Shown here one piece after another: positions 7,006 to 54,169 of a stretch of 64,000 bases of DNA. Position 1 is the first letter of the stretch. The number at the start of each line of letters is the position of its first letter. The DNA is from a virus. Under the pieces are notes generated by a model. It saw nothing but the letters and a program-made list of their open reading frames with translations, did not search any database and was not told where the DNA came from. Position numbers and translations under genes: made by a program. Where the stretch lies: the IMG/VR virus record IMGVR_UViG_3300033508_000214, positions 1-64,000 of that record; one strand, 5' to 3'.

Positions 7006-7841
7006 TAAATCTCCTCTATATCAACACTAGTACTATACATACTAAAGATTGGATGTGTAATATCCCCTAATTGAGATAGTTTACCATATATTTGATGAGA
7101 CTGTTCTTTATTTGAATCTTCGTCATTTGGAAATAAACTAATAAATAAAGGTTTTGGAATCCCACTACCGCGCATAATTTGTGTAATAGATAACCTATCA
7201 GCAGCATTTAAGTATTTTAAGTCAAAGTTCATAGTATTATACCTAATACCTCTATTAGTTTGAAGATCTCCTGACTCTGTACGAGTGTGTTCACTAAGAT
7301 CTTTCATACTTGTTGATAGACCGAATTCAGTATTGTACAGCGGAGACCAATAACTACCTATAACTAATCTTGATAATTCTAAGTAAGAGGAAGCATTATT
7401 CGAATCATTAATAGTAATAACTAACTTATTACAAGAAATTTGACCCTCGGTGAACCATATTCTACCATATGCACCACCACCATAAGAGTAGCTATTAGAA
7501 CCTAGGGGTAATACCCCCCAGTCCCATAAGCCTAGCCCTGAATAGGGACAGGCTGTAGTACTATAGGTTTTTAGTAAAGAAGCTCCAGTATATATCTGAA
7601 CTGTAAGTATAGCTGTACTGCTAAGATTACAAAAAGGTAGTATGATACCACCTATAATAGACTGAGTGAAAGTTACTGTAATAGTCTCACTAGACTTTCC
7701 GTTTGACCTCCATACTAGGGATTTAGTGTCTTTCTTGAGATTAGCTACGTTAGTTGTACCTGCAGTACTGGATGCAGAAAATGTAGTTGAACTAGCGTCA
7801 ACTACATTTTGGTATATAATTCTTAAATTATTTCTTGCCAT
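7005..7841 (-). CDS. Tail tip / distal tail-like protein
   Basis: 278 aa, beta-rich; lies between the central fibre and side fibres; has its own promoter. Confidence 0.5.
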   Translation of the reverse strand: MARNNLRIIYQNVVDASSTTFSASSTAGTTNVANLKKDTKSLVWRSNGKSSETITVTFTQSIIGGIILPFCNLSSTAILTVQIYTGASLLKTYSTTACPYSGLGLWDWGVLPLGSNSYSYGGGAYGRIWFTEGQISCNKLVITINDSNNASSYLELSRLVIGSYWSPLYNTEFGLSTSMKDLSEHTRTESGDLQTNRGIRYNTMNFDLKYLNAADRLSITQIMRGSGIPKPLFISLFPNDEDSNKEQSHQIYGKLSQLGDITHPIFSMYSTSVDIEEI

Positions 7842-38933: not shown

Positions 38934-39164
38934 TGACTAAAATTTTTTAGCTTATGGGCGATTTGTGCGTACATTTAGATTTGTGTGCTTATAGCGATTT
39001 GTGTACTTTATTCATTTGCTACACTTAGGGTCTTTTTGCTACGCTTTATTCATTTACTACACTTAGGGCATATAAGGCACCGAAAAAGCTGGTGTAGAAA
39101 TTTTAAAAAGGCCGCGTGAGATTGGGCGGCCGTATGCGAAGCGAAGCGGGGTCTGAAAACCGCC

Positions 39165-39500
39165 CCATTTTGGTGCATAGTTCTACTCAATGCAAGGGTA
39201 TGGTGCGCACAGTCCTGGTGTGTGCCCCGGCCTGGTGCGAATGTGCTAACTTGGTGCGATTATTTTGGTGCATTGCACTGATCTGGTGCATAGCTTTTTT
39301 CAATGCTACACTTCGGTGCGATTATTTTGGTGCATTGCACTGATCTGGTGCATAGCTTTTTTCAATGCTACACTTCGGTGCATAGGTTTTTTCAATGGGC
39401 TAAGATGGTGCAGTACGCACTGACCTGGTGCGCACAGTCCTGGTGCATAAAATATATAAGCACGCACTTAATTGGTGCTTGCACTAAATTGGTGCATAAG
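39165..39500. repeat. TGGTGC-rich repeat field with a 62-bp tandem duplication
   Basis: 62-bp unit at 39253 and 39315; many same-orientation (T)GGTGC words. Confidence 0.85.
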
Positions 39501-39843
39501 TAGCACTGCGCAAACTGTTGCGTCAAAACAACATAGGGCTAGAAGGGCTTAGAATGGCTATTTCAGCGTTTTTTTGGCTTGGGTGTAGGGTAGCCTTGGG
39601 ATGCTTGCGTTTGGCCTGTATAGCCCCTTTTGAAGGGTTTCCCTATGGGCTGACATCGGGTTATTTATAGCATCTAACGCACCGATTAGAAGCGTGAAGC
39701 GTGAAGTGTTGTATTTTTGCAACAGTAAAAAATTTTTGAATTATTTTCGTTTGTGGTGTCCAAACAACACTTTTGCCCATATAATTACCCCAAGGGAAAA
39801 ACAAGATGCTACAAAAATTGTAGCATCATTTTTGGAGTATATT

Positions 39844-40098
39844 ATGGCAGTTTCTTCTAAACTTGAGTTTGTTCAAAGTTTCACCGGGTTTCTGCCTGGT
39901 GAGTTTAAGGGGGCGTTTTTATTTACAGTTATTGACTGCGGAAAGCAGTCAATAACTGTCGCACTGCCTAACGCAAAATGGGCAGACTTGCAGGTAACCC
40001 TGAATGGGTTACTTATTAATCTCACAGGTGAGTATCCCCCTCAGATTAATAGGGCAATTAAGTTTGCCCGGAAACTATTCCCACACTGGCAGGGATAA
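39844..40098 (+). CDS. Hypothetical pre-early protein
   Basis: RBS GGAGT before ATG 39844 (MAVSSKLEF). Confidence 0.65.
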   Translation: MAVSSKLEFVQSFTGFLPGEFKGAFLFTVIDCGKQSITVALPNAKWADLQVTLNGLLINLTGEYPPQINRAIKFARKLFPHWQG

Positions 40099-40184
40099 TA
40101 CTCTGCCAGTCAACCCGGATGTTATCCGGGTTGAAAATATAATATATCTTGCAAGATATATTATATTTTCAACTGGAGTATATT

Positions 40185-40319
40185 ATGTTTTCAATTGTTC
40201 GCGTTGACCAGTTTGGTTTTATTAATTTTGCCGTCCATCTGGATGGCGTGGAGCTGGTTCGATTTGAAAAATACGGCTTGGCTGTGGATTTCATCCGCGC
40301 TATGGATGATATAGGATAA
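40185..40319 (+). CDS. Small hypothetical protein (44 aa)
   Basis: RBS aactggagtatattATG; MFSIVRVDQFGFINF...; flanked by hairpins. Confidence 0.5.
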   Translation: MFSIVRVDQFGFINFAVHLDGVELVRFEKYGLAVDFIRAMDDIG

Positions 40320-40550
40320 TATATAACCCTGCCAGATATTATCTGGCAGGGTTAAAATTTAAAGTAGCGGTCGATGCTTTAAATTTTAACTGGAGTATAT
40401 TATGTTGACTATTATTGCCATCGGGTTTGGTTTACAGATTTTCGGAATGTGCGTTATTTATTTATGCGTTAAAATGCGCTAATAAATAATAATAATAATA
40501 ACCCTTAGAAACCTGATCAGGCAATACCTGATCAGGTTTTCTTTTTTGTA

Positions 40551-40657
40551 TTATATAATACTTATCTCGGGTCTTATATAATACTTATCTCGGGTCTTAT
40601 ATAATACTTATCTCGGGTCTTATATAATACTTATCTCAGGTCTTATATAATACTTAT
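40551..40657. repeat. 23-bp tandem repeat, about 4.6 copies
   Basis: ttatataatacttatctcgggtc at 40551, 40574, 40597, 40620 (one mismatch), partial at 40643. Confidence 0.95.
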
Positions 40658-41057
40658 ATTCGCGAATTTGCGCCAAGTGCTTACCTGAATTTATTTTTAT
40701 TTATGTAGGATACTACTACAAGTATAGCTGCGCCGATTTTTGCTCGCCCTTTCACAACCTCATTATACACCTATTTTTAAACTGTGCGCATAAACTTGAA
40801 AATATATTTTTTCGTTGTTTTTGATGTTTGTCAGCTTCGGGTAAGGAACCCGGTGTAGGAACCCCTTTGCTATGCTTTTCATAGCGCCAAATTTTACCAT
40901 AAAATCAAGGCAAAAAATTAGATGTTGCAGTCTAATTTTTAGCGGCAAACCTGGAGTATAATCCACGCTAGACTATAAAGGATTAATATGGATATTATTG
41001 ATATTATTGCTGTTATTATTACTATTATTAGTTTGCCATTATTTATTTGGAGTTAAT

Positions 41058-41213
41058 ATGAGCATTTATTTGGATATGATTAACGCACAGTATAATGAAA
41101 ATTATACTGACATTAGTTACCTGGGAAATAGTGATTATCTCTTGATTAAGGGTAATCGGTATGGTACGGCTAAAATTATCGATAACGTGATAATCGGATA
41201 TTATAGGGGCTAA
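41058..41213 (+). CDS. Small hypothetical protein
   Basis: RBS GGAG before ATG 41058. Confidence 0.5.
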   Translation: MSIYLDMINAQYNENYTDISYLGNSDYLLIKGNRYGTAKIIDNVIIGYYRG

Positions 41214-41214
41214 T

Positions 41215-41553
41215 ATGGAAATTCAAATATATGCTGAAACCCTTTGGATTTCATATAAAAAGATATTCCCTGAGTTAAGGGGTGAATGTCCTAAAATTAT
41301 ATTATCTAATAGGCTGACTAAAACAGCTGGATATAATATAAGCGAACATAATACTATTACACTAGGTAATAAGTTTTTCAAGCGTAACATGGATAGTATG
41401 CTGAAAATTACATTACCCCACGAATTAGCACATCAAATTGATTATAACCTGCATGGTTGGTCAAAAAATAGAAAACATCACAATAGTAATTGGTGCGCTA
41501 TTATGATGATTATCGGTTTAGACCCTGACCCTTATCATTACATGGAGATATAA
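41215..41553 (+). CDS. SprT-like zinc metalloprotease
   Basis: SNRLTKTAG..HELAH..HHNSNW motif set. Confidence 0.8.
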   Translation: MEIQIYAETLWISYKKIFPELRGECPKIILSNRLTKTAGYNISEHNTITLGNKFFKRNMDSMLKITLPHELAHQIDYNLHGWSKNRKHHNSNWCAIMMIIGLDPDPYHYMEI

Positions 41554-41723
41554 TATGATATACATTGTTTTGCCATATATTGCCCCGATTACTAAATTTG
41601 ATCTGGTCGATGAGATGGAATACGAGGATAATGAAGATTTATTTATTACCCTAGAAGATGCGGGCTTAGAAAATAAACTAGAATACGATACTGTACCTGG
41701 TGCATTAAAAGAGTATTTTGATA

Positions 41724-41939
41724 ATGAATGTTAATTATATTTCCTGGTTTGCCACCGTATTATCTATTATTGGTGCATTTACGGTGGCAAATGGTATTAC
41801 CCTTTTCGGATACTGTGCATTTATATTAGGTTCTATTGGCTGGGGCTATATTGGAATTACTAATAAAGATAACGCACTTATTACAATGCAGGGTGTTTTT
41901 TTAATGGCTAATATAATGGGATTATATAATGCAATATGA
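41724..41939 (+). CDS. Small membrane protein
   Basis: Three hydrophobic segments. Confidence 0.6.
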   Translation: MNVNYISWFATVLSIIGAFTVANGITLFGYCAFILGSIGWGYIGITNKDNALITMQGVFLMANIMGLYNAI

Positions 41940-42093
41940 TATTTATGTGATAATGTTTAGACCACCTTTCTCGGATAAGTATTATTCGACTAAAGCATTT
42001 AATACCTTAGAAGATGCGGATATTTATATATTTGAAAATTCGGAGCTTAACCCGGATGCTTATTATGTTGCAGTAATAACTGTTAATTAAAAT

Positions 42094-42273
42094 AACCCGG
42101 TCAGATATAATATCTGACCGGGTTATTTTTTGGATCTTAACCTTACACCAAACTGACAGGCCTGGATGCTATGATTTTCATAGCGCTAAATTTTACCATA
42201 AAATCAAGGCAAAAAATTAGATGTTGCACCCTAATTTTCGCTAAAAACCTGGAGTATAATTACCGCATGGCAG
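42094..42273 (+). repeat. Composite intergenic unit (hairpin, CTTAC-N6-CTGAC box, palindrome, promoter)
   Basis: Near-identical to 43650-43845; partial or variant copies at 40869-40961, 45449-45775 and 46314-46445. Confidence 0.9.
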
Positions 42274-42401
42274 GGAAACACTGTCAGGGTTAACTGTAGG
42301 TGATAATTTTATATACTATTAACTTTATTTTATGAGATACTACATTATGCTATACATTGATGGGGTTTATTTTTGGTTATATGATAAGGAGGTTAATTAA
42401 T

Positions 42402-42866
42402 ATGAAAAGAATTGCAATATATGATATGGACGGTACTATTGTTTGCAGTTTGCACCGATATAAAACAATAGATGGTAAAATAGACTTGCAATATTGGCGG
42501 GATAATGAATATAGGGCAATGGACGATTCATTATTGCCATTATCTGCACAATATAAAAAGGATTTAGCAGATAATGATTGTTTTGTTATTATAGCAACTG
42601 CTAGAATACTGCGGGAACCTGATTTGTGTTTTATTAATACTATTCTCGGTAAACCAGATTATATTATATCTCGCAAAGAAAATGATTCTCGATCTGGTGC
42701 ATTATTGAAAGTTTTAGGTTTAAATAAGCTATTTAGTCTAAAACAATTTAGTAAAATCAAATCAGATATGATAGTATTTTACGAGGATAATATATCTTAT
42801 CTCAAAGCCGTTTGTGATAAGTTTAATTGTACAGGTATTTATATTCCAAGCAAACAAGGACATTAA
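42402..42866 (+). CDS. HAD-superfamily phosphatase
   Basis: AIYDMDGT motif I, IIATAR motif II, K, FYEDN motif IV; RBS AAGGAGG before ATG 42402. Confidence 0.85.
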   Translation: MKRIAIYDMDGTIVCSLHRYKTIDGKIDLQYWRDNEYRAMDDSLLPLSAQYKKDLADNDCFVIIATARILREPDLCFINTILGKPDYIISRKENDSRSGALLKVLGLNKLFSLKQFSKIKSDMIVFYEDNISYLKAVCDKFNCTGIYIPSKQGH

Positions 42867-42944
42867 TTATATTAGTTTGTAGATTCTAATTAAAAATCTA
42901 CTTGTTTACTCAGACAATACTCTGAATTACTTTTGAAAGTTATT

Positions 42945-43643
42945 ATGGCTAAAAAACAATACTTTGCTATTATTGATACTGAAACAACTATTAATGATAC
43001 TGTTGCTGACTGCGCGATTATTATTTGTGACCGTGAAGGGGTTATCTTTAATCAAATGGCCGTATTAATTAAAGATCATTTTGACACTAAAGAATTATTT
43101 TATGATATTACAGCTAAAGGGTTATGGTCATTAGAATATGCAAAAGAAAAACGTATTAAGTATAATGAGATGCTTAATGCTGGTTTCCGCAGTATGGCAT
43201 CCGTTAATGCTATTAATAAATGGATAAACCAAGCGATTGGTAAATATAATCCAATACTAACAGCATATAATCTGCCATTTGATGCAAATAAATGTGATAA
43301 TACTGGAATTGACTTAACTGGATTTGCAGATAGATTTGATTTGTGGGCGGCTTCAGTTGGCAATATCTGTAATAGAAAATTATATAAGCAGTTTTGTGTT
43401 GAGAATCATTTATTTAATAATCGCACAGATTATGGTAATATGACATTCAAAACGTCGGCTGAAACAGTTACGGGTTATTTAAATAATAATATGACCGACG
43501 AGCCACATACTGCGCTGGAAGATATTATCGGATACGAGTTACCTATTTTGAAACACATTCTAAGGATTAAAAAATGGCGTGATAATATCAAGCCTTATGA
43601 TTGGCGCGTGCATCAGGTTAAGGATAACTATATTGCAAAATAA
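42945..43643 (+). CDS. DEDDh 3'-5' exonuclease
   Basis: IIDTETT, AYNLPFD, HTALED motifs. Confidence 0.85.
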   Translation: MAKKQYFAIIDTETTINDTVADCAIIICDREGVIFNQMAVLIKDHFDTKELFYDITAKGLWSLEYAKEKRIKYNEMLNAGFRSMASVNAINKWINQAIGKYNPILTAYNLPFDANKCDNTGIDLTGFADRFDLWAASVGNICNRKLYKQFCVENHLFNNRTDYGNMTFKTSAETVTGYLNNNMTDEPHTALEDIIGYELPILKHILRIKKWRDNIKPYDWRVHQVKDNYIAK

Positions 43644-43649
43644 TTAGAA

Positions 43650-43845
43650 AACCCTGCCAGATACTATATCTGGCAGGGTTTTCTTTTGGATCTTAACCTT
43701 ACACCAAACTGACAGGCCTGGGTTGGGCCAGGATGCTATGATTTTCATAGCGCCAAATTTTACCATAAAATCAAGGCAAAAAATTAGATGTTGCAGTCTA
43801 ATTTTCACTAAAAACCTGGAGTATAATTACCGCATGGCAGGAAAA
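43650..43845 (+). repeat. Composite intergenic unit, second full copy
   Basis: Same elements and order as 42094-42273. Confidence 0.9.
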
Positions 43846-44085
43846 CAGGGTGCTGGCAGGTGAAAAAGAATTTAAGGCAACAAAAAATAAACTTGCAAAG
43901 ATCGTAAAAACCATGTTATACTGTAGGCTTGAAAGGGAAAAGCGGGAAACAGGCAAAAACGCAAAGCGCGCTGCAAAAATAAATTTTGCAAAATGCGAAA
44001 ATAAGCGCAAAACACTGTTACAATGTAGGCTAGACTGTAGCGAAACAGGACAAAATCGCAAATCTTTAATTTTTTAGGATTATAT

Positions 44086-44430
44086 ATGGCTACCGAAAAA
44101 ACCGTTAATTATACTAATGAGCAAACTGCTATGGTAATTGAACAGTATCTTGAAAATCCAACAACGGATACTGTTGCGAAACTCGCAGAAACTCTTGGAA
44201 AAACAGTTCGTAGCATTACTATGAAACTGGTTCGTGAAAAAGTATATGTTAAAAAAGAATATACTACTAAAACTGGTGGCAAAGTAGTAAAAAAGGATAG
44301 TCTGATTGACAAACTATCCGAGTTTGTCGAATTTACGGAAAATGAGCAAACTAGTTTTGAACACGTTAATAAGACAGCATTAGTTAAACTTATTAATAAG
44401 CTCCAAGGATATTTGCCAGTTACTGAATAA
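44086..44430 (+). CDS. T5 A2-like DNA-binding protein (paralogue 1)
   Basis: YTNEQT..LAETLGKTVRSITMKLVREKVY..KKDSLI..SFEHVNKTAL architecture like T5 A2. Confidence 0.65.
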   Translation: MATEKTVNYTNEQTAMVIEQYLENPTTDTVAKLAETLGKTVRSITMKLVREKVYVKKEYTTKTGGKVVKKDSLIDKLSEFVEFTENEQTSFEHVNKTALVKLINKLQGYLPVTE

Positions 44431-44529
44431 GTAATTAATAACCCTGCGGGGTTATTAATAAAGGGTTTAACCCTTTATTAATAATCGTCGATTATTAACC
44501 TGGTGTAACTTAACTTTTTAGGATATTAT

Positions 44530-44826
44530 ATGGCTTCCAATACCAAACTTTTCCCGGAACAAAAACAATACGTTAAACAATGGTGCAAAGATAATGATAC
44601 AGCTGAATTTTTTGATAATGAAAAAATCACGATTTTGGCAAAGCCTGATTTTAAAGGGTCAAGAATGTTTGTGGTTTCTATTTCCACAATGGCACCTAAT
44701 GAAAAGAAGTTTAGGTCATCGGTGGGTAGGTATTATGCCATTAGTAATATGGAAAATGGGCAGTATGTATTGATGGATTATAATACTATGTGGAGTTTTT
44801 TGGAAGCTAATGATTGTGTTTGTTAA
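44530..44826 (+). CDS. Hypothetical protein
   Basis: 98 aa with RBS. Confidence 0.6.
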   Translation: MASNTKLFPEQKQYVKQWCKDNDTAEFFDNEKITILAKPDFKGSRMFVVSISTMAPNEKKFRSSVGRYYAISNMENGQYVLMDYNTMWSFLEANDCVC

Positions 44827-45198
44827 TACTAATTAGTATTAATAACCCCTTTCGGGGGTTATTAATAAGGGCTGAACCCTTATTAACAATCTTTTTAACT
44901 AGGAGTATATATGAATCTCGCAGAAATTAATGCTTTTCGGGTTTCTCACGGTTTGGCGGCAATTGAAGTTAATAAACCTAAAAAGAAAAACAATAATAAG
45001 GCACTGCGTGCGCAGGAAAACAGGGATATTAAGTCAATGCGTACTGGTGGAAAAAAGGTAAGTAAATGAAAATCTGGCAAGTTTTCTATACTAACGGGTC
45101 TAATATGATTATATTGTCTCCTAATCGGAGACATATATGGAACAAGTATGTTTGTGTCGCTAAAATATATGAGATAGTTATTTATTAAGGAGTTAATT

Positions 45199-45441
45199 AT
45201 GTTGGCTGGTCTGGTTATTTTGGAAGATATTACTATTTGTTATTCTCAAAATGAGGATAATACTATTTCCTATAAGATCACGAATACTTATTCTGGCGAA
45301 TCTGAGGATATTATAGGTATTTCTTCTGTGAAGTTTTTCAAGGCATTATCTATTGCCGTACATAATGACGGCACCCCGGATTATGAGGAGGATTATCCTG
45401 ATGCCGAGGATATAATGCTTGATATTCGCTGGATTCCTTAA
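45199..45441 (+). CDS. Acidic hypothetical protein
   Basis: 80 aa; RBS AAGGAG; D/E-rich C-terminus. Confidence 0.6.
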   Translation: MLAGLVILEDITICYSQNEDNTISYKITNTYSGESEDIIGISSVKFFKALSIAVHNDGTPDYEEDYPDAEDIMLDIRWIP

Positions 45442-45826
45442 TTTAAGAAACCCGGTCAGATATTATCTGACCGGGTTTCTTTTGGATCTCAACCTTACAC
45501 CAAACTGACGGACCTGGTGGCCCTGGCCGTGCTATCATTTTGATAGCATGGTGCGCCGATTTTAGCTTACAATACTTACAACACCCTTACAAAAATAAAT
45601 ATATATTTTCGTTGTTTTTCGGTGTTTGTCAGTCTTATGTAAGTTTTGTTGTGTATCATTAGGTGTGGGCGCCGATTTTTGCTATAGATTTTGTAGCTAA
45701 AAATATATTTCAAATTAGGTTCAAGACTCTAATTTTTGGCTGTAAACCTGGTGTATAATTACCGCATGGCAGGAAGTTAGACTGCTATCATTGACCAGAT
45801 TGTTTCTATTATCTAAGGATTATATT

Positions 45827-46030
45827 ATGCGCACCATTACTATTGAAGTTACTTATTCTGCTGAGTATCTTATTACGGATGCAGAATTTGACTTGGTACA
45901 TTATCTGTATAACCTGTCAGAACCTAAAAAGGTTACCGCAGTTAAGTTTATTAAAAATCAACATAATCTGTCACTGAAAATCGCAAAGGATATTTGCGAT
46001 AAGATCGGACATAATCCGATTCAATACTAA
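45827..46030 (+). CDS. Small protein with ribosomal L7/L12 C-terminal-like motif
   Basis: KKVTAVKFIKNQHNLSLKIAKDICD resembles the bL12 KIxVIKxVR..GLGLKEAKDLVE pattern. Confidence 0.5.
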   Translation: MRTITIEVTYSAEYLITDAEFDLVHYLYNLSEPKKVTAVKFIKNQHNLSLKIAKDICDKIGHNPIQY

Positions 46031-46121
46031 AATAACCTGCCAGATAATATCTGGCAGGTTATAAATATAATAGTATCGAACTAGTTACTATTATATTTAT
46101 TGGTAACTAAGGAGTTATATA

Positions 46122-46310
46122 ATGGCTGGTATGATTTTCACTTATGAATCTCGCAAAAATGGTTGGCTTATTGAAATTGAGGGAAAAACAATTAAACTAT
46201 GGTTATCTGATGGATTTTCTAATTTTACAGGAGATTTTGATGAATTAAATGAGGCTTATCCAGAAGTTATTGCCGAACTAATTGAAAAGAAAATTATTAC
46301 TAAAAAATAA
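46122..46310 (+). CDS. Hypothetical protein
   Basis: 62 aa; RBS AAGGAG. Confidence 0.6.
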   Translation: MAGMIFTYESRKNGWLIEIEGKTIKLWLSDGFSNFTGDFDELNEAYPEVIAELIEKKIITKK

Positions 46311-46850
46311 AAGAAACCCGGTCAGATATTATCTGACCGGGTTTCTTTTGGATCTCAACCTTACACCAAACTGACGGACCTGGTGGCGGCTACCCTGGCT
46401 TACACCAAACTGACAACGCTATGATTTTCATAGCGCCGATTTTTGCTCGCCCTTTCACAACCTCATTATACTCTTTTCTGACCCTAGGAGTAGCAAATCG
46501 CAAAATATATTTTTTTCGTTGTTTTTTCGCACTCACAAATTGATAGCTGTTGTTTTTTCGCACTCACAAATTGATAGCGCTATCATTCTGGTAGCTTGCT
46601 ATGATTTTTGTAGCATTCCCCCTTCGTGGCGCCACAGTGGCCTTGTCAACAGTGAAAAACTGATTGTGTTTCTGCGCCACAGTGGCCGCTCGACTGCGCC
46701 ATTCTACTACAGTGCCCGGTCGATTGTCAAGCCCAGATTTCCGCGCTTCGGGTCAGGAAATCCATAAATTTAAAAAATTTTGTGTTGCAAAAATTTGCAC
46801 TTGTAATTTATTTACAATTATTGTATAATATAGTAAATTAGGAGAAAAAT

Positions 46851-47516
46851 ATGACTTGTGGAATTTACTTACTTACATTTGGGGAAAATTTATACTATGT
46901 TGGTCAGTCTATAGATATAGAAAGAAGATATGAAGAGCATTTATTAAATATTAAAAAAGGCTCTGCTAGTACAAAAATGCAAGATGCGTATAGTGCTTTT
47001 GGACTACCAAAACATTCTATTCTAAAAGTATGTAATAGTTATGAGCTGGATGAATATGAAAAATTTTATATAATTCAATTTAATTCATACTATAAAGGTT
47101 TAAACTATAATAGTGGGGGAGCTGGAGTAAAATATGGTGTATTTGAAGAAAGTATGTTTTATACTTTAAAAGGAATACTTAAAGCTTATTGTATAAATAA
47201 AGTTTCGGTAGATAGACTAGCGTCGTATCTAAATACTAGTCCATCAATAGTAATTGATTTATTAGCTGGTAATAAATATACAATGATTAGAGATGTATTT
47301 CCAGAATTGTATGATATAGCTATTAATAAGTATAAAGATGCTAATAAAATTATTAATACGTACCCTACAATAGTTAATGATAAAGGTGAAGAAGTAACTA
47401 TACCTTACCGTGGGGCATCTAAGTTTGCTAAAGAAAATAACTTAAATCCTGCAAATTTGTCTAAACTGCTGAAGGGTTCCGCCCATCGTTGTGGCACGTG
47501 GAAAAGAGCATATTAG
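46851..47516 (+). CDS. GIY-YIG homing endonuclease
   Basis: MTCGIY..YVGQSIDIERRY; own promoter TTGTAA-N17-TATAAT at 46801-46829. Confidence 0.85.
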   Translation: MTCGIYLLTFGENLYYVGQSIDIERRYEEHLLNIKKGSASTKMQDAYSAFGLPKHSILKVCNSYELDEYEKFYIIQFNSYYKGLNYNSGGAGVKYGVFEESMFYTLKGILKAYCINKVSVDRLASYLNTSPSIVIDLLAGNKYTMIRDVFPELYDIAINKYKDANKIINTYPTIVNDKGEEVTIPYRGASKFAKENNLNPANLSKLLKGSAHRCGTWKRAY

Positions 47517-47683
47517 GATCAGATAAACAGTGTTGAACTCGTTACCTAAATAGCTTATAATTGATATATCAGAAAATAAATGTATACCAACATACATTGA
47601 ACTTTCGCAAATGAAAATTTGATCTTGCGCGTTAGCTAAAAACGCTTTATAATTTATACATAAACCAACGAAAAGGAACTGTT

Positions 47684-47998
47684 ATGACTACTGAAAAATC
47701 TGTTGTGTCTTACACTGCTGAACAAACTGCTACTGCTATTGCGGATTACGCAGCAGGTGATACCATTGAAGCTATTGCGGATACCTTGGGCAAGACTGTC
47801 AAGTCTGTAATTGCTAAGCTGGCTAAGGAGGGTGTGTACAAAACTCCTGTTAAGGCTAAAACGACCCGAGTTACTAAAGCTATGCTGATTTCTGCTATTG
47901 CTGTTAAGTTCCGTGTAGAAGGTGAAGCTCTTGCCTCCCTGGAAAAAGCTGATAAGGCAACTCTGGAAATCTTGGCAGGTACGGAAATTTCGGCTTGA
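47684..47998 (+). CDS. T5 A2-like DNA-binding protein (paralogue 2)
   Basis: YTAEQT..IADTLGKTVKSVIAKLAKEGVY..SLEKADKATL; own promoter at about 47626-47653. Confidence 0.65.
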   Translation: MTTEKSVVSYTAEQTATAIADYAAGDTIEAIADTLGKTVKSVIAKLAKEGVYKTPVKAKTTRVTKAMLISAIAVKFRVEGEALASLEKADKATLEILAGTEISA

Positions 47999-48023
47999 CC
48001 CTAAGTTCAGCGTATGTTATAAT
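47995..48023 (+). promoter_or_regulatory. Sigma70 promoter for the hammerhead-containing ncRNA
   Basis: TTGACC-N17-TATAAT with no downstream ORF. Confidence 0.75.
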
Positions 48024-48027
48024 TATT

Positions 48028-48177
48028 GTATGTTAAGGGAACTCTCTGATGAGTCTGACCCTAGGTTTAGCGAGTGCTATTCCTGAATACAGACGAAACC
48101 CTAGACCATCAATCGTATGTTGCTGAAACATTCTCAGCCTTCACCATACGCTCAACCTAGGGTAAGAGCTTGCATAC
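48028..48177 (+). ncRNA. Type I hammerhead ribozyme
   Basis: CUGAUGA (48046-52), stem II GUCUG/CAGAC, GAAA (48095-98), stem III CCCUAG/CUAGGG, GUA cleavage triplet (after 48164), stem I CUCU/AGAG extended by GUAUGU-UAAG/CUU-GCAUAC. Confidence 0.8.
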
Positions 48178-48507
48178 GTGTAAGACTAGCCATCTAGTAA
48201 GGCTATAAACTAGAAAGTCGTTGCTCCTGACTATAAATTCGGGCCGCCAGATTAGGGCGTTGTACTAGAATCCCTGAGGCTAAACAGGTAGAAACGTAGC
48301 AACCTCTGCTAGAGGGTTTCTAGTGCACAAAGAAGTGTTTAAAATACAGCTATAATTTAATACGAGTGGTAAATTAGTCCACACTAAGAATGCTTTGTTA
48401 AAAGTAAATGAGAGTAATAATTCGTAATCTCTCTAGCGTCTAATAAAAACTTATAGACAATCTTTCTGGTTTGGTCGACTAGAAAGGCTCTCATAGACCA
48501 TAAGTTC

Positions 48508-48546
48508 AAAAGCCCTGTAACATTGCTGTTACAGGGCTTTTGTTTT
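48508..48546. terminator. Bidirectional intrinsic terminator
   Basis: aaaagccctgtaaca-ttgc-tgttacagggcttttgtttt between convergent units. Confidence 0.85.
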
Positions 48547-48928
48547 ACTGCTTATACTCTAATAAGGAATTTGTATAGTCAGTATAATTTTTACTAGCTA
48601 TACTATTATTATTTATTAGTTTCTTAAATTTAAGCCCTGGAATACCTAAAGTATTAATTAATTTGAAGTCTTTAAAGCCCCAGTCTTGTACATCCTTATC
48701 TAATAAGTAACTAGGATCTTGTTTAACAACTAAAGAATTAAAATAAGACTTAAAGGATCCGGTTTTTGGTTTATTAGGAAACCAAGTTTTCAAATCTTTT
48801 TTAAATTGTGCGGAAGATTTTACAAATAGCTCTTCTATATCTTCGATTGGCTCGTTCATTAATAGGTTTAATAAATAATCAGAATTATATAGCTCTGGAA
48901 TATTAAAATTTGTAGGGTCAATTTTCAT
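48545..48928 (-). CDS. Hypothetical protein
   Basis: 127 aa behind a consensus promoter. Confidence 0.6.
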   Translation of the reverse strand: MKIDPTNFNIPELYNSDYLLNLLMNEPIEDIEELFVKSSAQFKKDLKTWFPNKPKTGSFKSYFNSLVVKQDPSYLLDKDVQDWGFKDFKLINTLGIPGLKFKKLINNNSIASKNYTDYTNSLLEYKQ

Positions 48929-48963
48929 AATAAACTTTCTGTTAAAAATTTATTTCACTAAAG

Positions 48964-49357
48964 GCGCCAAATTATACTTCAGTGATAGTGTGACTGTCAA
49001 TACTATTTTTCTGACCCTAAGTGTAGCATATTGTGCAAGTCTGTATTTTAACAAAAAGTTTCGTTAAAAATTTATAGCAAAAAATTTCGTTATAAATTTT
49101 TTGTATTTTAGTGCTAGACGTGTATATTTTCGAAGCTCCACTACATTTGATAAAATTTCATCAATTCTAGAAGGATTTGCTCAAGTGTTATATGTACGCA
49201 GTAGTCTGCTACATAGGCCCTATTTGCTAAAATATACTATAGCTAAAAAGTTTATAGTACTATCACAGTGGCGACTTTTTCGAAGCTTTTGCGCCAAATT
49301 ATACTTCAGTGCTAGTGTGACTGTCAACACTATTTTTCTGACCCTAGGTTGAGCATA
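48964..49357 (-). promoter_or_regulatory. Duplicated ~66-bp promoter unit
   Basis: Copies at 48964-49030 and 49291-49357; each has minus-strand TTGACA-N18-TATAAT with a TGACCCTARG box upstream. Confidence 0.8.
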
Positions 49358-49443
49358 CGTATCGATTTATGTATATTCGATCACTGGACCGCTCACTTGG
49401 TTAGTCAATGTGTCATTCAGTGGGTTAGTCAGTAACCACAAAC

Positions 49444-49482
49444 AAAAAAGCCCCTAAGCTTCAACAGCTTAGGGGCTTTTTT
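49444..49482 (-). terminator. Intrinsic terminator
   Basis: aaaaaagcccctaagct-tcaac-agcttaggggctttttt. Confidence 0.85.
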
Positions 49483-49520
49483 GTTTTCTATTCAACTTAC
49501 CGTCTGTTCGTCTAGCCTGC

Positions 49521-49874
49521 TCAACTTACTGTCTGTTCGTCTAGTCTGCTCAACTTAGGTTCAAGAGCGTCTAGAATCATGATTAATACGTTTTTATTGA
49601 CTTTTTCAAGGCTTTCTAGAAATTCTAGGTCTTTTCCTAGAATTTGTGCGATTTTTTCGATATATTTGGACTTTCTAATAGGGGTGCGGCCCTGTTTAGT
49701 CACATATTCCTTGCGTTTGTAGACTCCTAAGGCTGATAACTTGGATATAATGCTGCGCTCAGGTATTTCTTCTCCGAGTTGGGCACCCAAAGTCGTAGCT
49801 ATGGTTTTTGGATCCATTTTTTGGTCTACGTACATCTGCCGCGCCAATTCGGTAATTTCTTGATTGTATTTCAT
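49521..49874 (-). CDS. T5 A2-like DNA-binding protein (paralogue 3)
   Basis: Likely start MKYNQE; RSIISKLSALGVYKRKEYVTKQG..RKSKYI..SLEKVNKNVL aligns with 44086..44430. Confidence 0.65.
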   Translation of the reverse strand: MKYNQEITELARQMYVDQKMDPKTIATTLGAQLGEEIPERSIISKLSALGVYKRKEYVTKQGRTPIRKSKYIEKIAQILGKDLEFLESLEKVNKNVLIMILDALEPKLSRLDEQTVS

Positions 49875-49884
49875 ATTTTTATAA

Positions 49885-50055
49885 CTGTTTCTGATCCTAG
49901 GTGCAGCGATCATACAAATCGTTGCATGTGGTAATCTTTTTGCCCAATTAATTGGTGAGTCTGTTTCTGATCCTAGGTGCAGCGATCATACAAATCGTTG
50001 CATGTGGTAATCTTTTTGCCCAATTAATTGGTGAGTCTGTTTCTGATCCTAGGTG
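49885..50055. repeat. 76-bp tandem repeat, 2 copies plus partial third
   Basis: Unit beginning ctgtttctgatcctaggtg at 49885, 49961 and 50037. Confidence 0.95.
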
Positions 50056-50128
50056 GGGCGTATGTCTTGATTGTAACAAATTATTACGATTAGTAGACTT
50101 TACTCAGCTTAAGGTCAGAAGTACTAGT

Positions 50129-50323
50129 CTAGTCCCAAGGCTTATCTGCTTCTAACTTCTTAAGTACTTTTATCTTAAAAGCGGAATCAGTTGGAAGAGA
50201 CCTTAGTAATACATCTCGTATAAATCCTAAATGCATATACTGTTTACCACTAGGATACTTCATAGACTCGAGTGCTGAAATAGTTAAGTGTAGTGCAAAT
50301 TCTACGTCTTGTTGATTTACCAT
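50129..50323 (-). CDS. Hypothetical protein
   Basis: 64 aa, coupled to the upstream gene. Confidence 0.5.
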   Translation of the reverse strand: MVNQQDVEFALHLTISALESMKYPSGKQYMHLGFIRDVLLRSLPTDSAFKIKVLKKLEADKPWD

Positions 50324-51096
50324 GTTGGGAACATTGCCTCCCCAACATCAGTAGTTTTACGACTATACTTTTCGCTACTCTTTAGTACTTCTTGTTCAAT
50401 TAGAGGATCTGGCATATTATCCCAATCGTTAGGGTCTAGAATCATATTTGATGTACGCAGACTAGGGTCAGCTACCCAGATTTGTCCTAACATAGTTAGG
50501 GTCAGGCTAGGAAGACCAAACCATTCGGTATTCTGTAGACCTGTTAATGTCCAGCTAGAAATTGGCTTTTTCATACTACCAGCAGCAGGGCCTGATTTTA
50601 CAGTTAGTCCTTGTGCTCTAAGCTCTAGTGCTCTATCTTTAGTTACCTCGGGGATTTCTGCGGTTGCAGCTTCAAACAGATTATCACCAATAATAACTTC
50701 TAGTTTTTCTCTAGACCAGCTAGAATATGGGATACCTTGAGCATCTTTAAGTGCTGCAATTAGGATTGGGACTAAAGATGAATACTTGCTGAACTCTTTA
50801 GTATTCTGGGACTTAACTAGCTTAGACCTACCTAGTCTAGTAATAACTCGCCATAGACCAATATCCCACGGCTTATTATTAATATTTTCCAAGTACAAAG
50901 ACTTGGACTCATACTCACCTCTAGAGTTCTTAGTAGCAGTGTATGCGCCATAATATCCATAGATTTGGGGTAGCATCCACGCATTAAAGGCTGTAAGATT
51001 ATGATCTACAGCCCACTTCTCTAGTTGCGAGTCGGTTAGTCTTTCAGCCTCATGGAACGGAAAGCTTTTAATATCGTTTTTATTTAGAATAAACAT
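50317..51096 (-). CDS. Hypothetical protein
   Basis: 259-aa ORF with RBS; no recognised motif. Confidence 0.7.
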   Translation of the reverse strand: MFILNKNDIKSFPFHEAERLTDSQLEKWAVDHNLTAFNAWMLPQIYGYYGAYTATKNSRGEYESKSLYLENINNKPWDIGLWRVITRLGRSKLVKSQNTKEFSKYSSLVPILIAALKDAQGIPYSSWSREKLEVIIGDNLFEAATAEIPEVTKDRALELRAQGLTVKSGPAAGSMKKPISSWTLTGLQNTEWFGLPSLTLTMLGQIWVADPSLRTSNMILDPNDWDNMPDPLIEQEVLKSSEKYSRKTTDVGEAMFPTW

Positions 51097-51517
51097 AAAT
51101 TACCTACTGTTTTGTTGCTAGTACAGGAGCAACAGTACCTGACCCTAAGTGTAGTATAGGGATTTGCCTAAGATTTCCTAGCAGGTCGGGCGGTAACCTA
51201 TTCGGAACGAACGGACGATTATTACGGTAATCGAAAAAAAGCGGTTGAAACCGCTTTTTCCGATTCAAAAACAAAATTTTTCAATTTCAAACAAAAATAG
51301 TTCTCCAAACCTTCAACCCTCCACCGCGATAATTAAAAAAAACTTTAAAAATTAGCAAAAACCAAGAAAAGCAACGTAACAAGTAACGCTTTTCAGGTTT
51401 TATTTATTTTATAAATTTTTTTTATTATCTTCACCGGGGTCTATCTATATATATGATCTAATTATATCACAAACGCTAGTATAAAATCAAGTTCAATTTT
51501 TAGCAAGGTAGTAAAAT

Positions 51518-52360
51518 TCAGATTTGGATAAGACATTCACTATAGTTAGAATTATTACCGTAGCCGTATGGATTAGCAATTATTCTAGTGCTACCTATCT
51601 TTACATCTACATTATCATGAGTATGTCCGTGCAAAAATAATGTGTTTTCTAGACTGCTAATCCACTCCGACAAATCATTAGCAAAGTAATCGTTAAGCGT
51701 GTTAGGCCCGCTATACTTAGGGTCAATAGAGATTATTGATGGCAGAAAATGAGTAACAATAACTTTCTTTAGCTTTGTAACCTCATACTGATGCTTGATG
51801 TAACCGTAATGCTGATTAAATAGATTACTGCAATCATTAGGCGTGAACCTACGGTCGTCAAACTCGATAAGCTTGAAGTCATTGATACCTATAGCTGCAT
51901 GAGATTTACTAAACTCGTTATTACGAAAGTTAGTCCATAGCGGTGCCCCTATAAAGGCAACCGCATTACTAATAGGCTTCACCCTAAGTTGAGCGACTTT
52001 AGCTAGCTTAGAATCATCAATCTCTAGCTCATACTTAGTAGGCACCGTATCCTGTAGCTGCTTGCTAATAGGATTGTAGTAAGCTGTGCCTGGGTTAAGA
52101 AACTTGATTGATGTATGCTTAGACCAATCTTCTAGCTTTTTATTAAAGTCTTGGTAGTTTTGCTTATAGTACTCATGATTACCTGGAATGTAAACAATAT
52201 TAGGCTGATGCTCCGCAAAATGCTTTAGCGTAGTCCAAACATTATTAGCCCCTACATGTAGATCACCAGCGATTACTAGAACATCTTCGCCTTGAGACTT
52301 ATAGAGTGCTTTGTCGAAGCTGTATTCAGCGTGTAGATCAGATATTAAACGCACAATCAT
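51518..52360 (-). CDS. Calcineurin-like metallophosphoesterase
   Basis: SDLH, AGD, PGNHE, VTH, HGHTH motifs. Confidence 0.9.
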   Translation of the reverse strand: MIVRLISDLHAEYSFDKALYKSQGEDVLVIAGDLHVGANNVWTTLKHFAEHQPNIVYIPGNHEYYKQNYQDFNKKLEDWSKHTSIKFLNPGTAYYNPISKQLQDTVPTKYELEIDDSKLAKVAQLRVKPISNAVAFIGAPLWTNFRNNEFSKSHAAIGINDFKLIEFDDRRFTPNDCSNLFNQHYGYIKHQYEVTKLKKVIVTHFLPSIISIDPKYSGPNTLNDYFANDLSEWISSLENTLFLHGHTHDNVDVKIGSTRIIANPYGYGNNSNYSECLIQI

Positions 52361-52466
52361 ATTAGTAATGTACCCATAACAAAAGCAATCTTAGCTGCTT
52401 GATATAAAAATCCAATTGTAAAGCTAACAACTATAGTAATAGTTGTTATTAGCACAAATTCTTTAA

Positions 52467-52766
52467 TTAATTCCATGCTAATTCCATTGCAAATTGGCAG
52501 CCCGCGCCTCCCAGCTGCATATAACGAATACTAAAATCAAAGTATTCGCTTAGAATAGATAGAAGCTCATTCATAACATACTCATCTAGCGTACACTTTT
52601 GATCGTTAATAATTAGTGTACATTCGTCCTCAACAATATCAAAAGTATGCCTAACTCCTAGTTTGATTAGATTACTAGATAGTTCGTCAAATTCATCTTT
52701 AAAATCTGACTGATCACAGTCCCTTTTATATGATGATACAATTTGTTTAGGTATAATTAGTTTCAT
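52467..52766 (-). CDS. Hypothetical protein
   Basis: 99 aa in the leftward operon. Confidence 0.55.
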   Translation of the reverse strand: MKLIIPKQIVSSYKRDCDQSDFKDEFDELSSNLIKLGVRHTFDIVEDECTLIINDQKCTLDEYVMNELLSILSEYFDFSIRYMQLGGAGCQFAMELAWN

Positions 52767-53108
52767 TTAGATGTCCATCCATTTAATATCATAACCAGCT
52801 GACTCACGATTAACAATCCACTCTTCTAGCTCTTTAATATGCTCTAAAGAGTAGTTATGTTCAACTACTCCAATAGGTTCATTAACTTCCCAAGTATCCC
52901 CTTCTGCATATACAAGTTCTTCTACTTTAGAATCAAGTTTCCTAATCCAGTTAACATAGAACTCTTTAGTATCATTACTTGATAGAGCATTGTAAGTAAC
53001 ATCAGAAGGCGTACTCCAAAGATCAAAACTATATGTTTGCTGATCCTTAGCTCCGGTTCTATCCACAGTAATGTTTCTAGTGGCTAAAATCATTAGATTA
53101 ATACTCAT
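52767..53108 (-). CDS. Hypothetical protein
   Basis: 113 aa with RBS AAGGA. Confidence 0.6.
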   Translation of the reverse strand: MSINLMILATRNITVDRTGAKDQQTYSFDLWSTPSDVTYNALSSNDTKEFYVNWIRKLDSKVEELVYAEGDTWEVNEPIGVVEHNYSLEHIKELEEWIVNRESAGYDIKWMDI

Positions 53109-53193
53109 TACATTTCCTTTTAAAGATTAATTATAACATAAATGCAAAAGGGCTTGCAACGGCATAATTTTTAGCGTTGCAAGCCCTTTAGGG

Positions 53194-53835
53194 TTAAATA
53201 GGAAAAAATGCTTCCATAGTAATAGGAGCAACGACCCTAAGTTGAGAAATTATATCTTCCGCTAACTCTCTATGTTCTTTTTGTGTAGTAGGATGTAATC
53301 GTTGTTTTAGATAGAATACCCATGAACGGATATTACCATTCATGTACATCCTACTCATAGTATTACCCTCAGGTAAGATAGCCCTAGCCTGTTCCTTAGC
53401 AATACCTTTACTAAGCGCTTCCTTATACGCTAGAGTTACTTCCCTAATAACCATATCTTGAGTTTCTTGCCACCAAGTATTAAGCTCTGAGTCTTCTACT
53501 TCAATAGAAGACTGCCTATTAGTTGTATCTTGTAACCTACATTCTCTAGTAAGAAACCCACCAAGTTTTGTTACATCCTGATACCTCTGTGAAAACTCTT
53601 GAAAAGAGAAAGACCTATGCCGTAGTATCTGCCTACCAATATCTCTAGTAGTATTGATCTCCATAGTTACATTAGCCATTTCAAAGGGTGACACGTGCCC
53701 CTCTCGCATCATATACTGTAGTAACCCCAGGATATTTGGGTTACTCTGATTGCTAGGATTAGATACCCTAGCAATATACGAGATAGTATTATCAATATCT
53801 GGTGTAGCCCAGATAACTTTTGCTGCATTAGTCAT
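53194..53835 (-). CDS. thyX: Flavin-dependent thymidylate synthase
   Basis: HVSPFE, RHRSFSFQEFSQRY ThyX motif, EQARAILP, TQKEHR; likely start MTNAAK at 53835. Confidence 0.95.
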   Translation of the reverse strand: MTNAAKVIWATPDIDNTISYIARVSNPSNQSNPNILGLLQYMMREGHVSPFEMANVTMEINTTRDIGRQILRHRSFSFQEFSQRYQDVTKLGGFLTRECRLQDTTNRQSSIEVEDSELNTWWQETQDMVIREVTLAYKEALSKGIAKEQARAILPEGNTMSRMYMNGNIRSWVFYLKQRLHPTTQKEHRELAEDIISQLRVVAPITMEAFFPI

Positions 53836-54085
53836 ATTTACTAGTAATGGTAATAGTTGGATTATCTTCTTCAAACGCTACACCTAGGGTACATTCTTCC
53901 GGTGTAAGTGCGTAACCTATCTCGCTAGCTTGAAACTCATTAAATGCTTCTAGCATTTTAAAAACACTATACTCATATACACCTTTTCCTAGACGGGTGT
54001 GAGATACTAATGCGTGAATAGCTTCTAAATCAGTAAAATTAAGTCCAGTTAACTTAAAAAGCCCATTCTTTGTTTGTTTAATCAT
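53828..54085 (-). CDS. Hypothetical protein
   Basis: Likely start MIKQTK at 54085. Confidence 0.55.
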   Translation of the reverse strand: MIKQTKNGLFKLTGLNFTDLEAIHALVSHTRLGKGVYEYSVFKMLEAFNEFQASEIGYALTPEECTLGVAFEEDNPTITITSKYD

Positions 54086-54169
54086 ATTTAATCCAAATAT
54101 ATGCTGCTGTAGCAGCAATAATAACAGATCCTAAGTGTAGCAAGTATGAAGGACCACATCTAATCTTAG

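Follow-up and report, generated by a model that had tools for sequence, protein, structure and literature searches.

Hammerhead ribozymes cut RNA into a 5' fragment that carries a 2',3'-cyclic phosphate and a 3' RNA that begins with a 5'-hydroxyl group. The discontinuous hammerhead in the 3' untranslated region of mouse Clec2 transcripts reportedly has its insert in stem I and regulates the mRNA, while in gut phages the HDV-like 'theta' ribozymes adjoin tRNAs. The cutting of phage transcripts by hammerheads has been established since 2011 (Perreault et al. 2011, PMC3088659), and the presumed role of the type I hammerheads of bacteria, prophages and phages (RF00163 and its clan) in this setting is to cut a longer phage transcript into defined pieces (PMC3088659).

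The locus described here lies in the viral record IMGVR_UViG_3300033508_000214 of IMG/VR (96 kb), of which positions 1 to 64,000 are referred to below as the window. Its hammerhead shares with the described type I ribozymes the catalytic core, the three-helix junction, the open stem I and the intergenic phage setting, and its presumed role is of the same kind. In some members of its family A9 is followed by an additional U, which is a rare variation of a kind already reported (PMC3088659). However, the family is not detected by any Rfam model, and it differs from the Rfam type I hammerheads in that stem III carries a conserved extension (39-54 nt); one subfamily also has a stem II extension of 28-77 nt bearing a motif that is repeated throughout the genome. 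Unlike the known type I hammerheads, the unit keeps a constant syntenic position next to one gene, and its ribozyme stands ahead of a conserved non-coding RNA instead of flanking protein genes. As with the Clec2 hammerhead, which belongs to the hammerheads with very large loops proposed as control points, the large insertions separating the core strands could allow the timing of the active fold to be set by other pairings or by factors; the inserts of the present non-coding unit are, however, in stems II and III, and the conservation pattern gives no support to a regulatory alternative fold. The likeness to the theta ribozymes lies in the position of a small self-cleaving ribozyme directly after phage tRNA genes, where it would define RNA ends, but both the ribozyme class and the phage group are different and the copy in the window has no adjacent tRNA.

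We consider it likely that the locus is a real type I hammerhead fronting a dedicated non-coding unit in an uncultured T5-like phage from microbial mats, and that it frees an RNA of about 380 nt. Host RNA polymerase would start near 48030 and the ribozyme would fold during transcription and be cut after A48164, yielding a 5' fragment of about 135 nt and a freed RNA (48165 to about 48546) with a 5'-OH end, whose first bases could afterwards pair with the stretch immediately preceding the terminator. This same ribozyme would, in many relatives, part the 3' RNA from a leader or from a tRNA-Glu. Such a unit would give the phage hammerhead a defined and recurrent job, namely making the 5' end of a conserved structured RNA, in a clade with hundreds of contigs, and would add a sizeable family to the ribozyme-processed non-coding RNAs.

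Anatomy of the transcription unit

The window contains, at positions 48046-48164, a complete type I hammerhead in which every core base is present (Table 1). Three helices of 4, 5 and 7 bp (stems I, II and III) surround the core, with stem I open. The A15.1-U16.1 pair is formed by A48098 and U48163, and H17 is A48164, not G; the relatives have C or A at this position. The ribozyme begins 48 nt past the end of the upstream gene, the promoter is located about 15 nt from stem I in this phage, and the longest ORF between promoter and terminator is 41 aa. The promoter, the intact core and the lack of an ORF before the terminator were thus all found where the original prediction had placed them. The bidirectional terminator also ends a 127-aa gene of the minus strand.

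A strict type I hammerhead scan of the 96-kb virus record gave exactly one match, while the same scan detected a hammerhead in none of 200 Markov-shuffled copies of this genome. Judged from its sequence features, the hammerhead is genuine and heads a non-coding unit that extends from promoter to terminator. Since none of the public RNA runs holds this sequence, we infer its transcription and cleavage; the runs that hold it are of DNA from microbial mats only. The DNA contigs examined contained only strain variants resembling L031, a relative described below.

Table 1. Features of the hammerhead unit and its surroundings (coordinates of the window)
Feature	Coordinates	Strand	Remarks
Upstream 104-aa gene, PHROG 1725 'DNA binding protein', T5 D5-like	47684-47998	+	syntenic anchor for the whole ribozyme-RNA family
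Sigma-70-type promoter: TTGACC, 17-nt spacer, upstream TG, TATAAT	47995-48023	+	11/12 consensus positions
Forward motif copy over the -35 box and spacer of the unit's promoter	47997-48012	+	
Predicted transcription start	near 48030	+	
5' leader and 5' strand of stem I (CUCU, 48042-45)	48030-48045	+	
Conserved GGG in leader (GGGUAAC in relatives)	48037-39	+	candidate partner of loop II ACCC, putative pairing
Hammerhead core C3 to A9, CUGAUGA	48046-48052	+	
Stem II, GUCUG (48053-57) with CAGAC (48090-94), 32-nt loop	48053-48094	+	
Forward copy of the family-wide motif inside loop II	48055-48072	+	includes the proposed 'inhibitory strand', 48058-72
Core G12, A13, A14 and A15.1 (GAAA)	48095-48098	+	
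Stem III, 7 bp, ACCCUAG (48098-104) with CUAGGGU (48157-63), 52-nt insert	48098-48163	+	
Inner helix of the stem III insert, CGUAUG with CAUACG	48114-19 with 48145-50	+	
Hairpin inside the stem III insert	48122-38	+	
Reverse motif copy forming the 3' strand of stem III	48149-64	inverted	
Predicted cleavage site, GUA then A; A17 is A48164	48164/48165	+	
3' strand of stem I, AGAG	48165-68	+	stem I is 4 bp
3' RNA, conserved, structured, ORF-free	48165-48506	+	
Predicted closing helix of the 3' RNA	48166-72 with 48501-07	+	
Putative pseudoknot, stem 1	48187-91 with 48201-05	+	invariant
Putative pseudoknot, stem 2	48193-98 with 48209-14	+	two compensatory pairs in L031
Family signature: hairpin GCAC, AAAGAA loop, GUGU, then box AAAAUACAGCUAU	48325-48353	+	
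Intrinsic terminator, 16-bp stem and U tract, bidirectional	48507-48542 (region to 48550)	+	

Searches of reference databases

A scan with the Rfam hammerhead models, which had been named as a check when the ribozyme was proposed, was negative for the window at the gathering score; in E-value mode the best hammerhead was Hammerhead_3 (RF00008) with a misaligned match of 15.7 bits against a cutoff of 48.5. The relatives likewise gave no usable hammerhead match in E-value mode. The models miss this hammerhead because of its 32-nt loop II and the 52-nt insert in stem III, and since the relatives are also invisible to Rfam, the failure reflects the long inserts and not a false motif; the gathering threshold is an operational test rather than a biological one. 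Large helix inserts can therefore hide real ribozymes from standard scans. For the 3' RNA, Rfam produced no match in the window or in the relatives, the weak hits covering the terminator only.

Comparison with 50,697 GenBank phages revealed no DNA similarity to this sequence and no tblastn match to the 104-aa neighbour protein; the unit is without a cultured carrier among the GenBank phages searched. Identity of the portal protein to its counterparts in Vibrio T5-like phages is about 40%. A literature search returned no paper tying hammerheads to T5-like phages. Pattern scans of viral contigs keyed on the stem II of the window, or on the core together with the motif, gave nothing new: one match was true, from a contig already known, and the other 21 were due to chance. 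The drum RNA motif was considered as a hammerhead-linked relative and rejected, as no link to hammerheads is given in PMC5737381 and no match to it was obtained here.

Relatives of the ribozyme

An alignment of the upstream protein, used to search viral contigs, identified 401 relatives, of which the loci of 80 were fetched. Contig L003, reached via the 104-aa protein, carries two tandem tRNA-Glu genes with a hammerhead after each; in these hammerheads the stem III insert is 52 nt long, as in the window, and the 3' strand is almost identical. A metagenome pattern keyed solely on the 3' half of the unit returned four loci, each with a complete core ahead of this half. L031, one of the four, is syntenic with the window at 77-92% identity. 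Its stem II reads GAUCU/AGAUC instead of GUCUG/CAGAC, four of the five pairs being changed with the pairing kept, and the core bases are all intact in both sequences at 23% divergence.

A covariance model, R1, built only from L003 and L028-30 with the window left out, matched the window at 48032-48180 with 39.5 bits (E 4.3e-9) and gave nothing else below E 0.05. The strict hammerhead scan was passed by 35 of the 80 fetched loci and 43 were matched by R1, in every case (43/43) on the strand of the upstream gene; the strict-scan hammerheads are found roughly 330 to 1,300 nt downstream of that gene. Throughout the relatives examined the core is identical. When 38 distinct sequences were aligned to R1, paired cells made up 91% and 16 of the 21 pairs showed changes on both sides (compensatory changes); the covariation score is 0.383, whereas shuffling gives 0.135, with none of 500 shuffles as high as the observed score, and slid partners score at most 0.074. 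This alignment is fitted to R1, and the same compensations were seen in an independent helix table and in the raw output of the strict scan. By this comparative evidence the ribozyme is real, and the ribozyme-RNA family to which it is assigned is large and uncatalogued, occurring in uncultured T5-like phages downstream of a gene for a D5-like DNA-binding protein.

In L003, and in 8 of 28 loci, the gene immediately before the ribozyme is a tRNA-Glu gene, and in several loci a tRNA-Glu(UUC) ends about 5 bases before the ribozyme core, while other relatives have a leader of 130-190 nt before the ribozyme. Since the ribozyme of the relatives is preceded by a leader or a tRNA-Glu, the 'stand-alone' character claimed for this RNA holds for the promoter-to-terminator layout seen here, but not as the ancestral state, and this layout is a derived, trimmed version. 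The shared function suggested by these arrangements is the detaching of the downstream RNA from whatever stands before it.

It is very improbable that the hammerhead in the window is a relic that has lost its activity, or that inverted motif copies produced it by chance, the region then being only a regulatory spacer. Stem I is indeed short and the Rfam models give no score above threshold, and positions 7396-7500 of L003 contain the same three motif copies and cleavage-site sequence with the CUGAUGA core absent, so decay of such units does happen. However, the core is intact both here and in L031 despite their divergence, with stem II fully compensated, all stems covary across the family, none of the 200 shuffled genomes contains a comparable hammerhead, and the downstream RNA is conserved with compensatory changes.

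The 3' RNA predicted to be released

The sequence of about 380 nt that follows the predicted cut is conserved between the window and L031, with indels that are not multiples of three, and RNAalifold analysis of the two sequences yielded 80 pairs, 12 of them compensatory. The core, the covariation and this conserved 3' RNA agree with the original prediction of a hammerhead placed ahead of a structured RNA of this size.

The H-type pseudoknot also proposed for the 3' RNA is plausible and half supported. Its stem 2 shows two double changes in L031, from U-A to C-G and from C-G to U-A, whereas stem 1 shows no change and competes in the predicted structure with a long-range pairing. In both clades, pairing is predicted between the first seven bases of the 3' RNA and the seven that immediately precede the terminator. 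After cleavage the new 5'-OH end would be enclosed in this closing helix; since stem I uses the same bases, cutting would have to occur during transcription.

The hairpin with the AAAGAA loop and the box AAAUACAGCUAU were found in 22 other fetched loci, with the hairpin stem covarying freely. Recurrence of this signature suggests that the 3' RNA is a family of its own, absent from Rfam. Owing to divergence, the alignment of the 3' RNA over both clades gives a trustworthy common structure for one block and the closing helix only. A search of the genome for antisense targets of the conserved box revealed no near-perfect complement. Circularisation or ligation of the cleavage products by a phage RtcB was considered and rejected, since no RtcB was found in the record. 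The decoy or anti-defence role suggested with the original prediction draws no support from these results, nor do they count against it.

Alternative pairing of the stem II loop

Within loop II, positions 48058-72 are complementary to 48149-63 at 14 of 15 positions, and both segments are copies of the dispersed motif, as had been noted when a built-in off-switch was proposed. The duplex energy of this alternative pairing is -22.1 kcal/mol compared with -9.7 kcal/mol for stem III. In the window the constrained folds are isoenergetic (-41.0 kcal/mol for the active and -40.7 kcal/mol for the inactive one), the helix probabilities are 0.51 for the active and 0.45 for the alternative pairing, and it is the alternative helix that is present in the centroid structure of the full RNA. 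For this RNA, an inactive fold that excludes the active one and is of similar stability is thus indeed predicted.

Such a fold could make the ribozyme conditional, with loop II capturing the cleavage strand and the RNA staying uncut until a trigger frees it. This reading gains from the presence of the forward motif at exactly this place, the start of loop II, in all eight long-loop lineages, which keep the full 20-nt motif, and from the fact that the alternative duplex is possible in each of the eight (-14.5 to -26 kcal/mol); in one of them, L111, the alternative helix is dominant with a probability of 0.91. Nevertheless, we regard it as unlikely. No covariation is seen between loop II and the cleavage strand: loop II is canonical in L044, L082 and L097 despite drift of stem III, which is compensated on the 5' strand of stem III, and in L031 the pairs between loop II and the cleavage strand are down to 12 of 15 without compensation. 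The probability of the alternative helix is at most 0.02 in five of the eight subfamily members and 0.21 in L044, and the alternative beats the active fold in L111 only, with a tie in the window; L043 is predicted to stand at the extreme opposite to L111. No such segment occurs in loop II of the short-loop subfamily, to which most members belong. Furthermore, the 3' half of the motif takes part in a local helix that shows compensatory changes in L044 (AAAUUG with CAAUUU) and L089. This results in an extended stem II with an internal loop, and in most of the members with a low probability of the alternative helix this covarying distal helix sequesters the motif. Finally, cleavage is irreversible, and therefore an alternative of equal energy would only slow the cutting unless some factor locked it.

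The off-switch, the exciting part of the original prediction, is thus not favoured by the comparative evidence, the inactive fold being neither conserved nor covarying, and the pairing of loop II is probably not a selected switch. Most likely the complementarity between loop II and the cleavage strand comes from the origin of the latter: the 3' strand of the ribozyme is a reverse copy of the motif in most lineages, and therefore any forward copy in the transcript is complementary to it. Given the equal-energy folds, cleavage in this particular phage may be slow or conditional. A structural role does not fully explain the presence of the full 20-nt motif in loop II of all eight members.

Loop II may instead contribute to activity. 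A pseudoknot between stems I and II, which serves fast cleavage in many bacterial and phage hammerheads, is used by about 40% of natural hammerheads and is required at 0.5 mM Mg2+ (PMC3088659). In the present family, a candidate for the tertiary contact needed by natural hammerheads is the leader GGG with the ACCC of loop II. In all eight long-loop members the sequence GGGUAAC or a close variant precedes the core by 6-10 nt, and ACCC is found in all eight in the internal loop of the extended stem II, just past a proximal stem of 4-5 bp, so that both elements occur at matching distances from the core. It is possible, if rather doubtful, that ACCC pairs with GGG(U) and in this way activates the ribozyme. 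L082 and L097 retain just three possible pairs, and such a contact accounts for the ACCC but not for the keeping of the whole 20-nt motif. Both GGG and ACCC are nearly invariant.

The dispersed motif

The strands of the ribozyme itself are linked to a promoter-associated repeat motif, which needs explaining. There are 14 copies of this motif compared with 0.39 expected, and in the 80 loci it is the most enriched 8-mer, with 411 copies compared with about 13 expected. The family consensus, in reverse orientation, is roughly TTGCTNCAGTTTAGGGTCAG and is not palindromic. Throughout the family the motif occurs in both orientations, within and between genes, and it is equally abundant in phages with a different stem III sequence. 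None of the other motif copies has a core upstream, as shown by a search for split or degenerate hammerheads at these sites. When a link was counted if the -35 box starts 13-21 nt past the end of the motif, a strong sigma-70 promoter was found after 16% of the reverse-orientation copies (64/400); random sites gave 4.5% and the opposite orientation 2.5%. In the window, motif copies precede two duplicated perfect promoters, and three copies are present in 76-bp tandem repeats before the gene of a D5-like paralogue (49524-49874). Both small proteins flanking the unit, of 104 and 117 aa, match PHROG 1725, 'DNA binding protein'.

The simplest reading of these data is that the motif is a site for a regulator acting at the DNA level. 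The three copies around the unit may be binding sites for a phage regulator, perhaps the D5-like proteins, which would time the synthesis of the RNA, the complementarity at the RNA level being a side effect; we hold this to be a fair possibility, although short of an even chance, and it is compatible with a hammerhead that frees a non-coding RNA. It agrees with the family-wide occurrence of the motif in both orientations inside and between genes, with its oriented spacing to strong promoters, with the copy over the -35 box and spacer of this very unit, with the tandem copies before the D5-like paralogue and with the PHROG assignment of the two flanking proteins. On the other hand, it is their neighbourhood that connects protein and motif, 84% of the copies have no adjoining strong promoter, and the consensus lacks the symmetry of a palindrome. 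The DNA-level reading gives no reason for the ribozyme being built on motif copies. The reverse motif resembles CACUAUAGGG, but its interpretation as a T7-like promoter is unsupported, as the 96-kb record gave no match to the single-subunit RNA polymerase family PF00940, in a search whose controls went undetected too.

Another explanation, which we consider quite improbable, is that the motif serves as a shared address tying the processing of the ribozyme to the gene programme, so that a factor recognising it could switch cleavage, or, alternatively, that the 135-nt fragment acts in trans on leaders bearing the motif. The factor proposed in the shared-address reading might be a phage protein, for instance one of the D5-like DNA-binding proteins, or else motif copies of complementary sequence in further transcripts of the phage.

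Dispersed motif and associated promoters

The repeat described in the original prediction as a dispersed 17-bp motif is indeed dispersed, and proved to be a 20-nt element common to the whole phage family, with the forward consensus approximating CTGACCCTAAACTGNAGCAA. The 96-kb record contains 22 copies, 17 of which lie within positions 39018-54141 of the window, and the motif is the top enriched 8-mer among 80 related phage loci (L032-L111). Strong sigma-70 promoters are located 13-21 nt downstream of 16% of the copies, the orientation of the motif being fixed.

Motif-bearing features and neighbouring elements of the window
Feature	Position	Strand or location
Three 76-bp tandem repeats, one motif copy each	49893-50060	minus-strand sense
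Two near-identical modules, motif copy and perfect promoter each	48968-49028 and 49295-49355	promoters on minus strand
GIY-YIG homing-endonuclease gene	46851-47516	one gene upstream of the ribozyme-ncRNA unit
ORF-poor stretch	46310-46850	
Promoter in this stretch	46730-46701	minus
Terminator in this stretch	46349-46309	minus
Motif copy in this stretch	46480-46494	

The second D5-like DNA-binding-protein gene, on the minus strand at 49524-49874, is immediately preceded by the tandem repeats, an arrangement that would suit autoregulation. In both modules, which are spaced by about 327 bp, the promoter consists of TTGACA, 18 nt and TATAAT; the 270 nt separating them contain no notable ORF, and a further small minus-strand transcript may originate here. 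The ORF-poor stretch, which also contains direct repeats, is a candidate second non-coding unit. The homing-endonuclease gene is also present in another related locus, L031, with 92% identity.

Ribozymes in related loci

In some loci, including L054, L073 and L105, the ribozyme is preceded by a tRNA-Glu(UUC) gene, and stem I directly continues the CCA end of the tRNA (…CCAACCCU followed by CUGAUGA). The entire hammerhead would stay after cleavage as a 3' trailer of the tRNA. Positions 7396-7500 of the related locus L003 carry the same motif trio as the window, two forward copies and one inverted, and the sequence spanning the cleavage site of the window is identical (…AACCTAGGGTAAGAGC); this region contains neither the CUGAUGA core nor stem II. 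The region, which adjoins the intact tRNA-linked ribozymes of L003, appears to be a degenerated copy of a ribozyme of the window's type.
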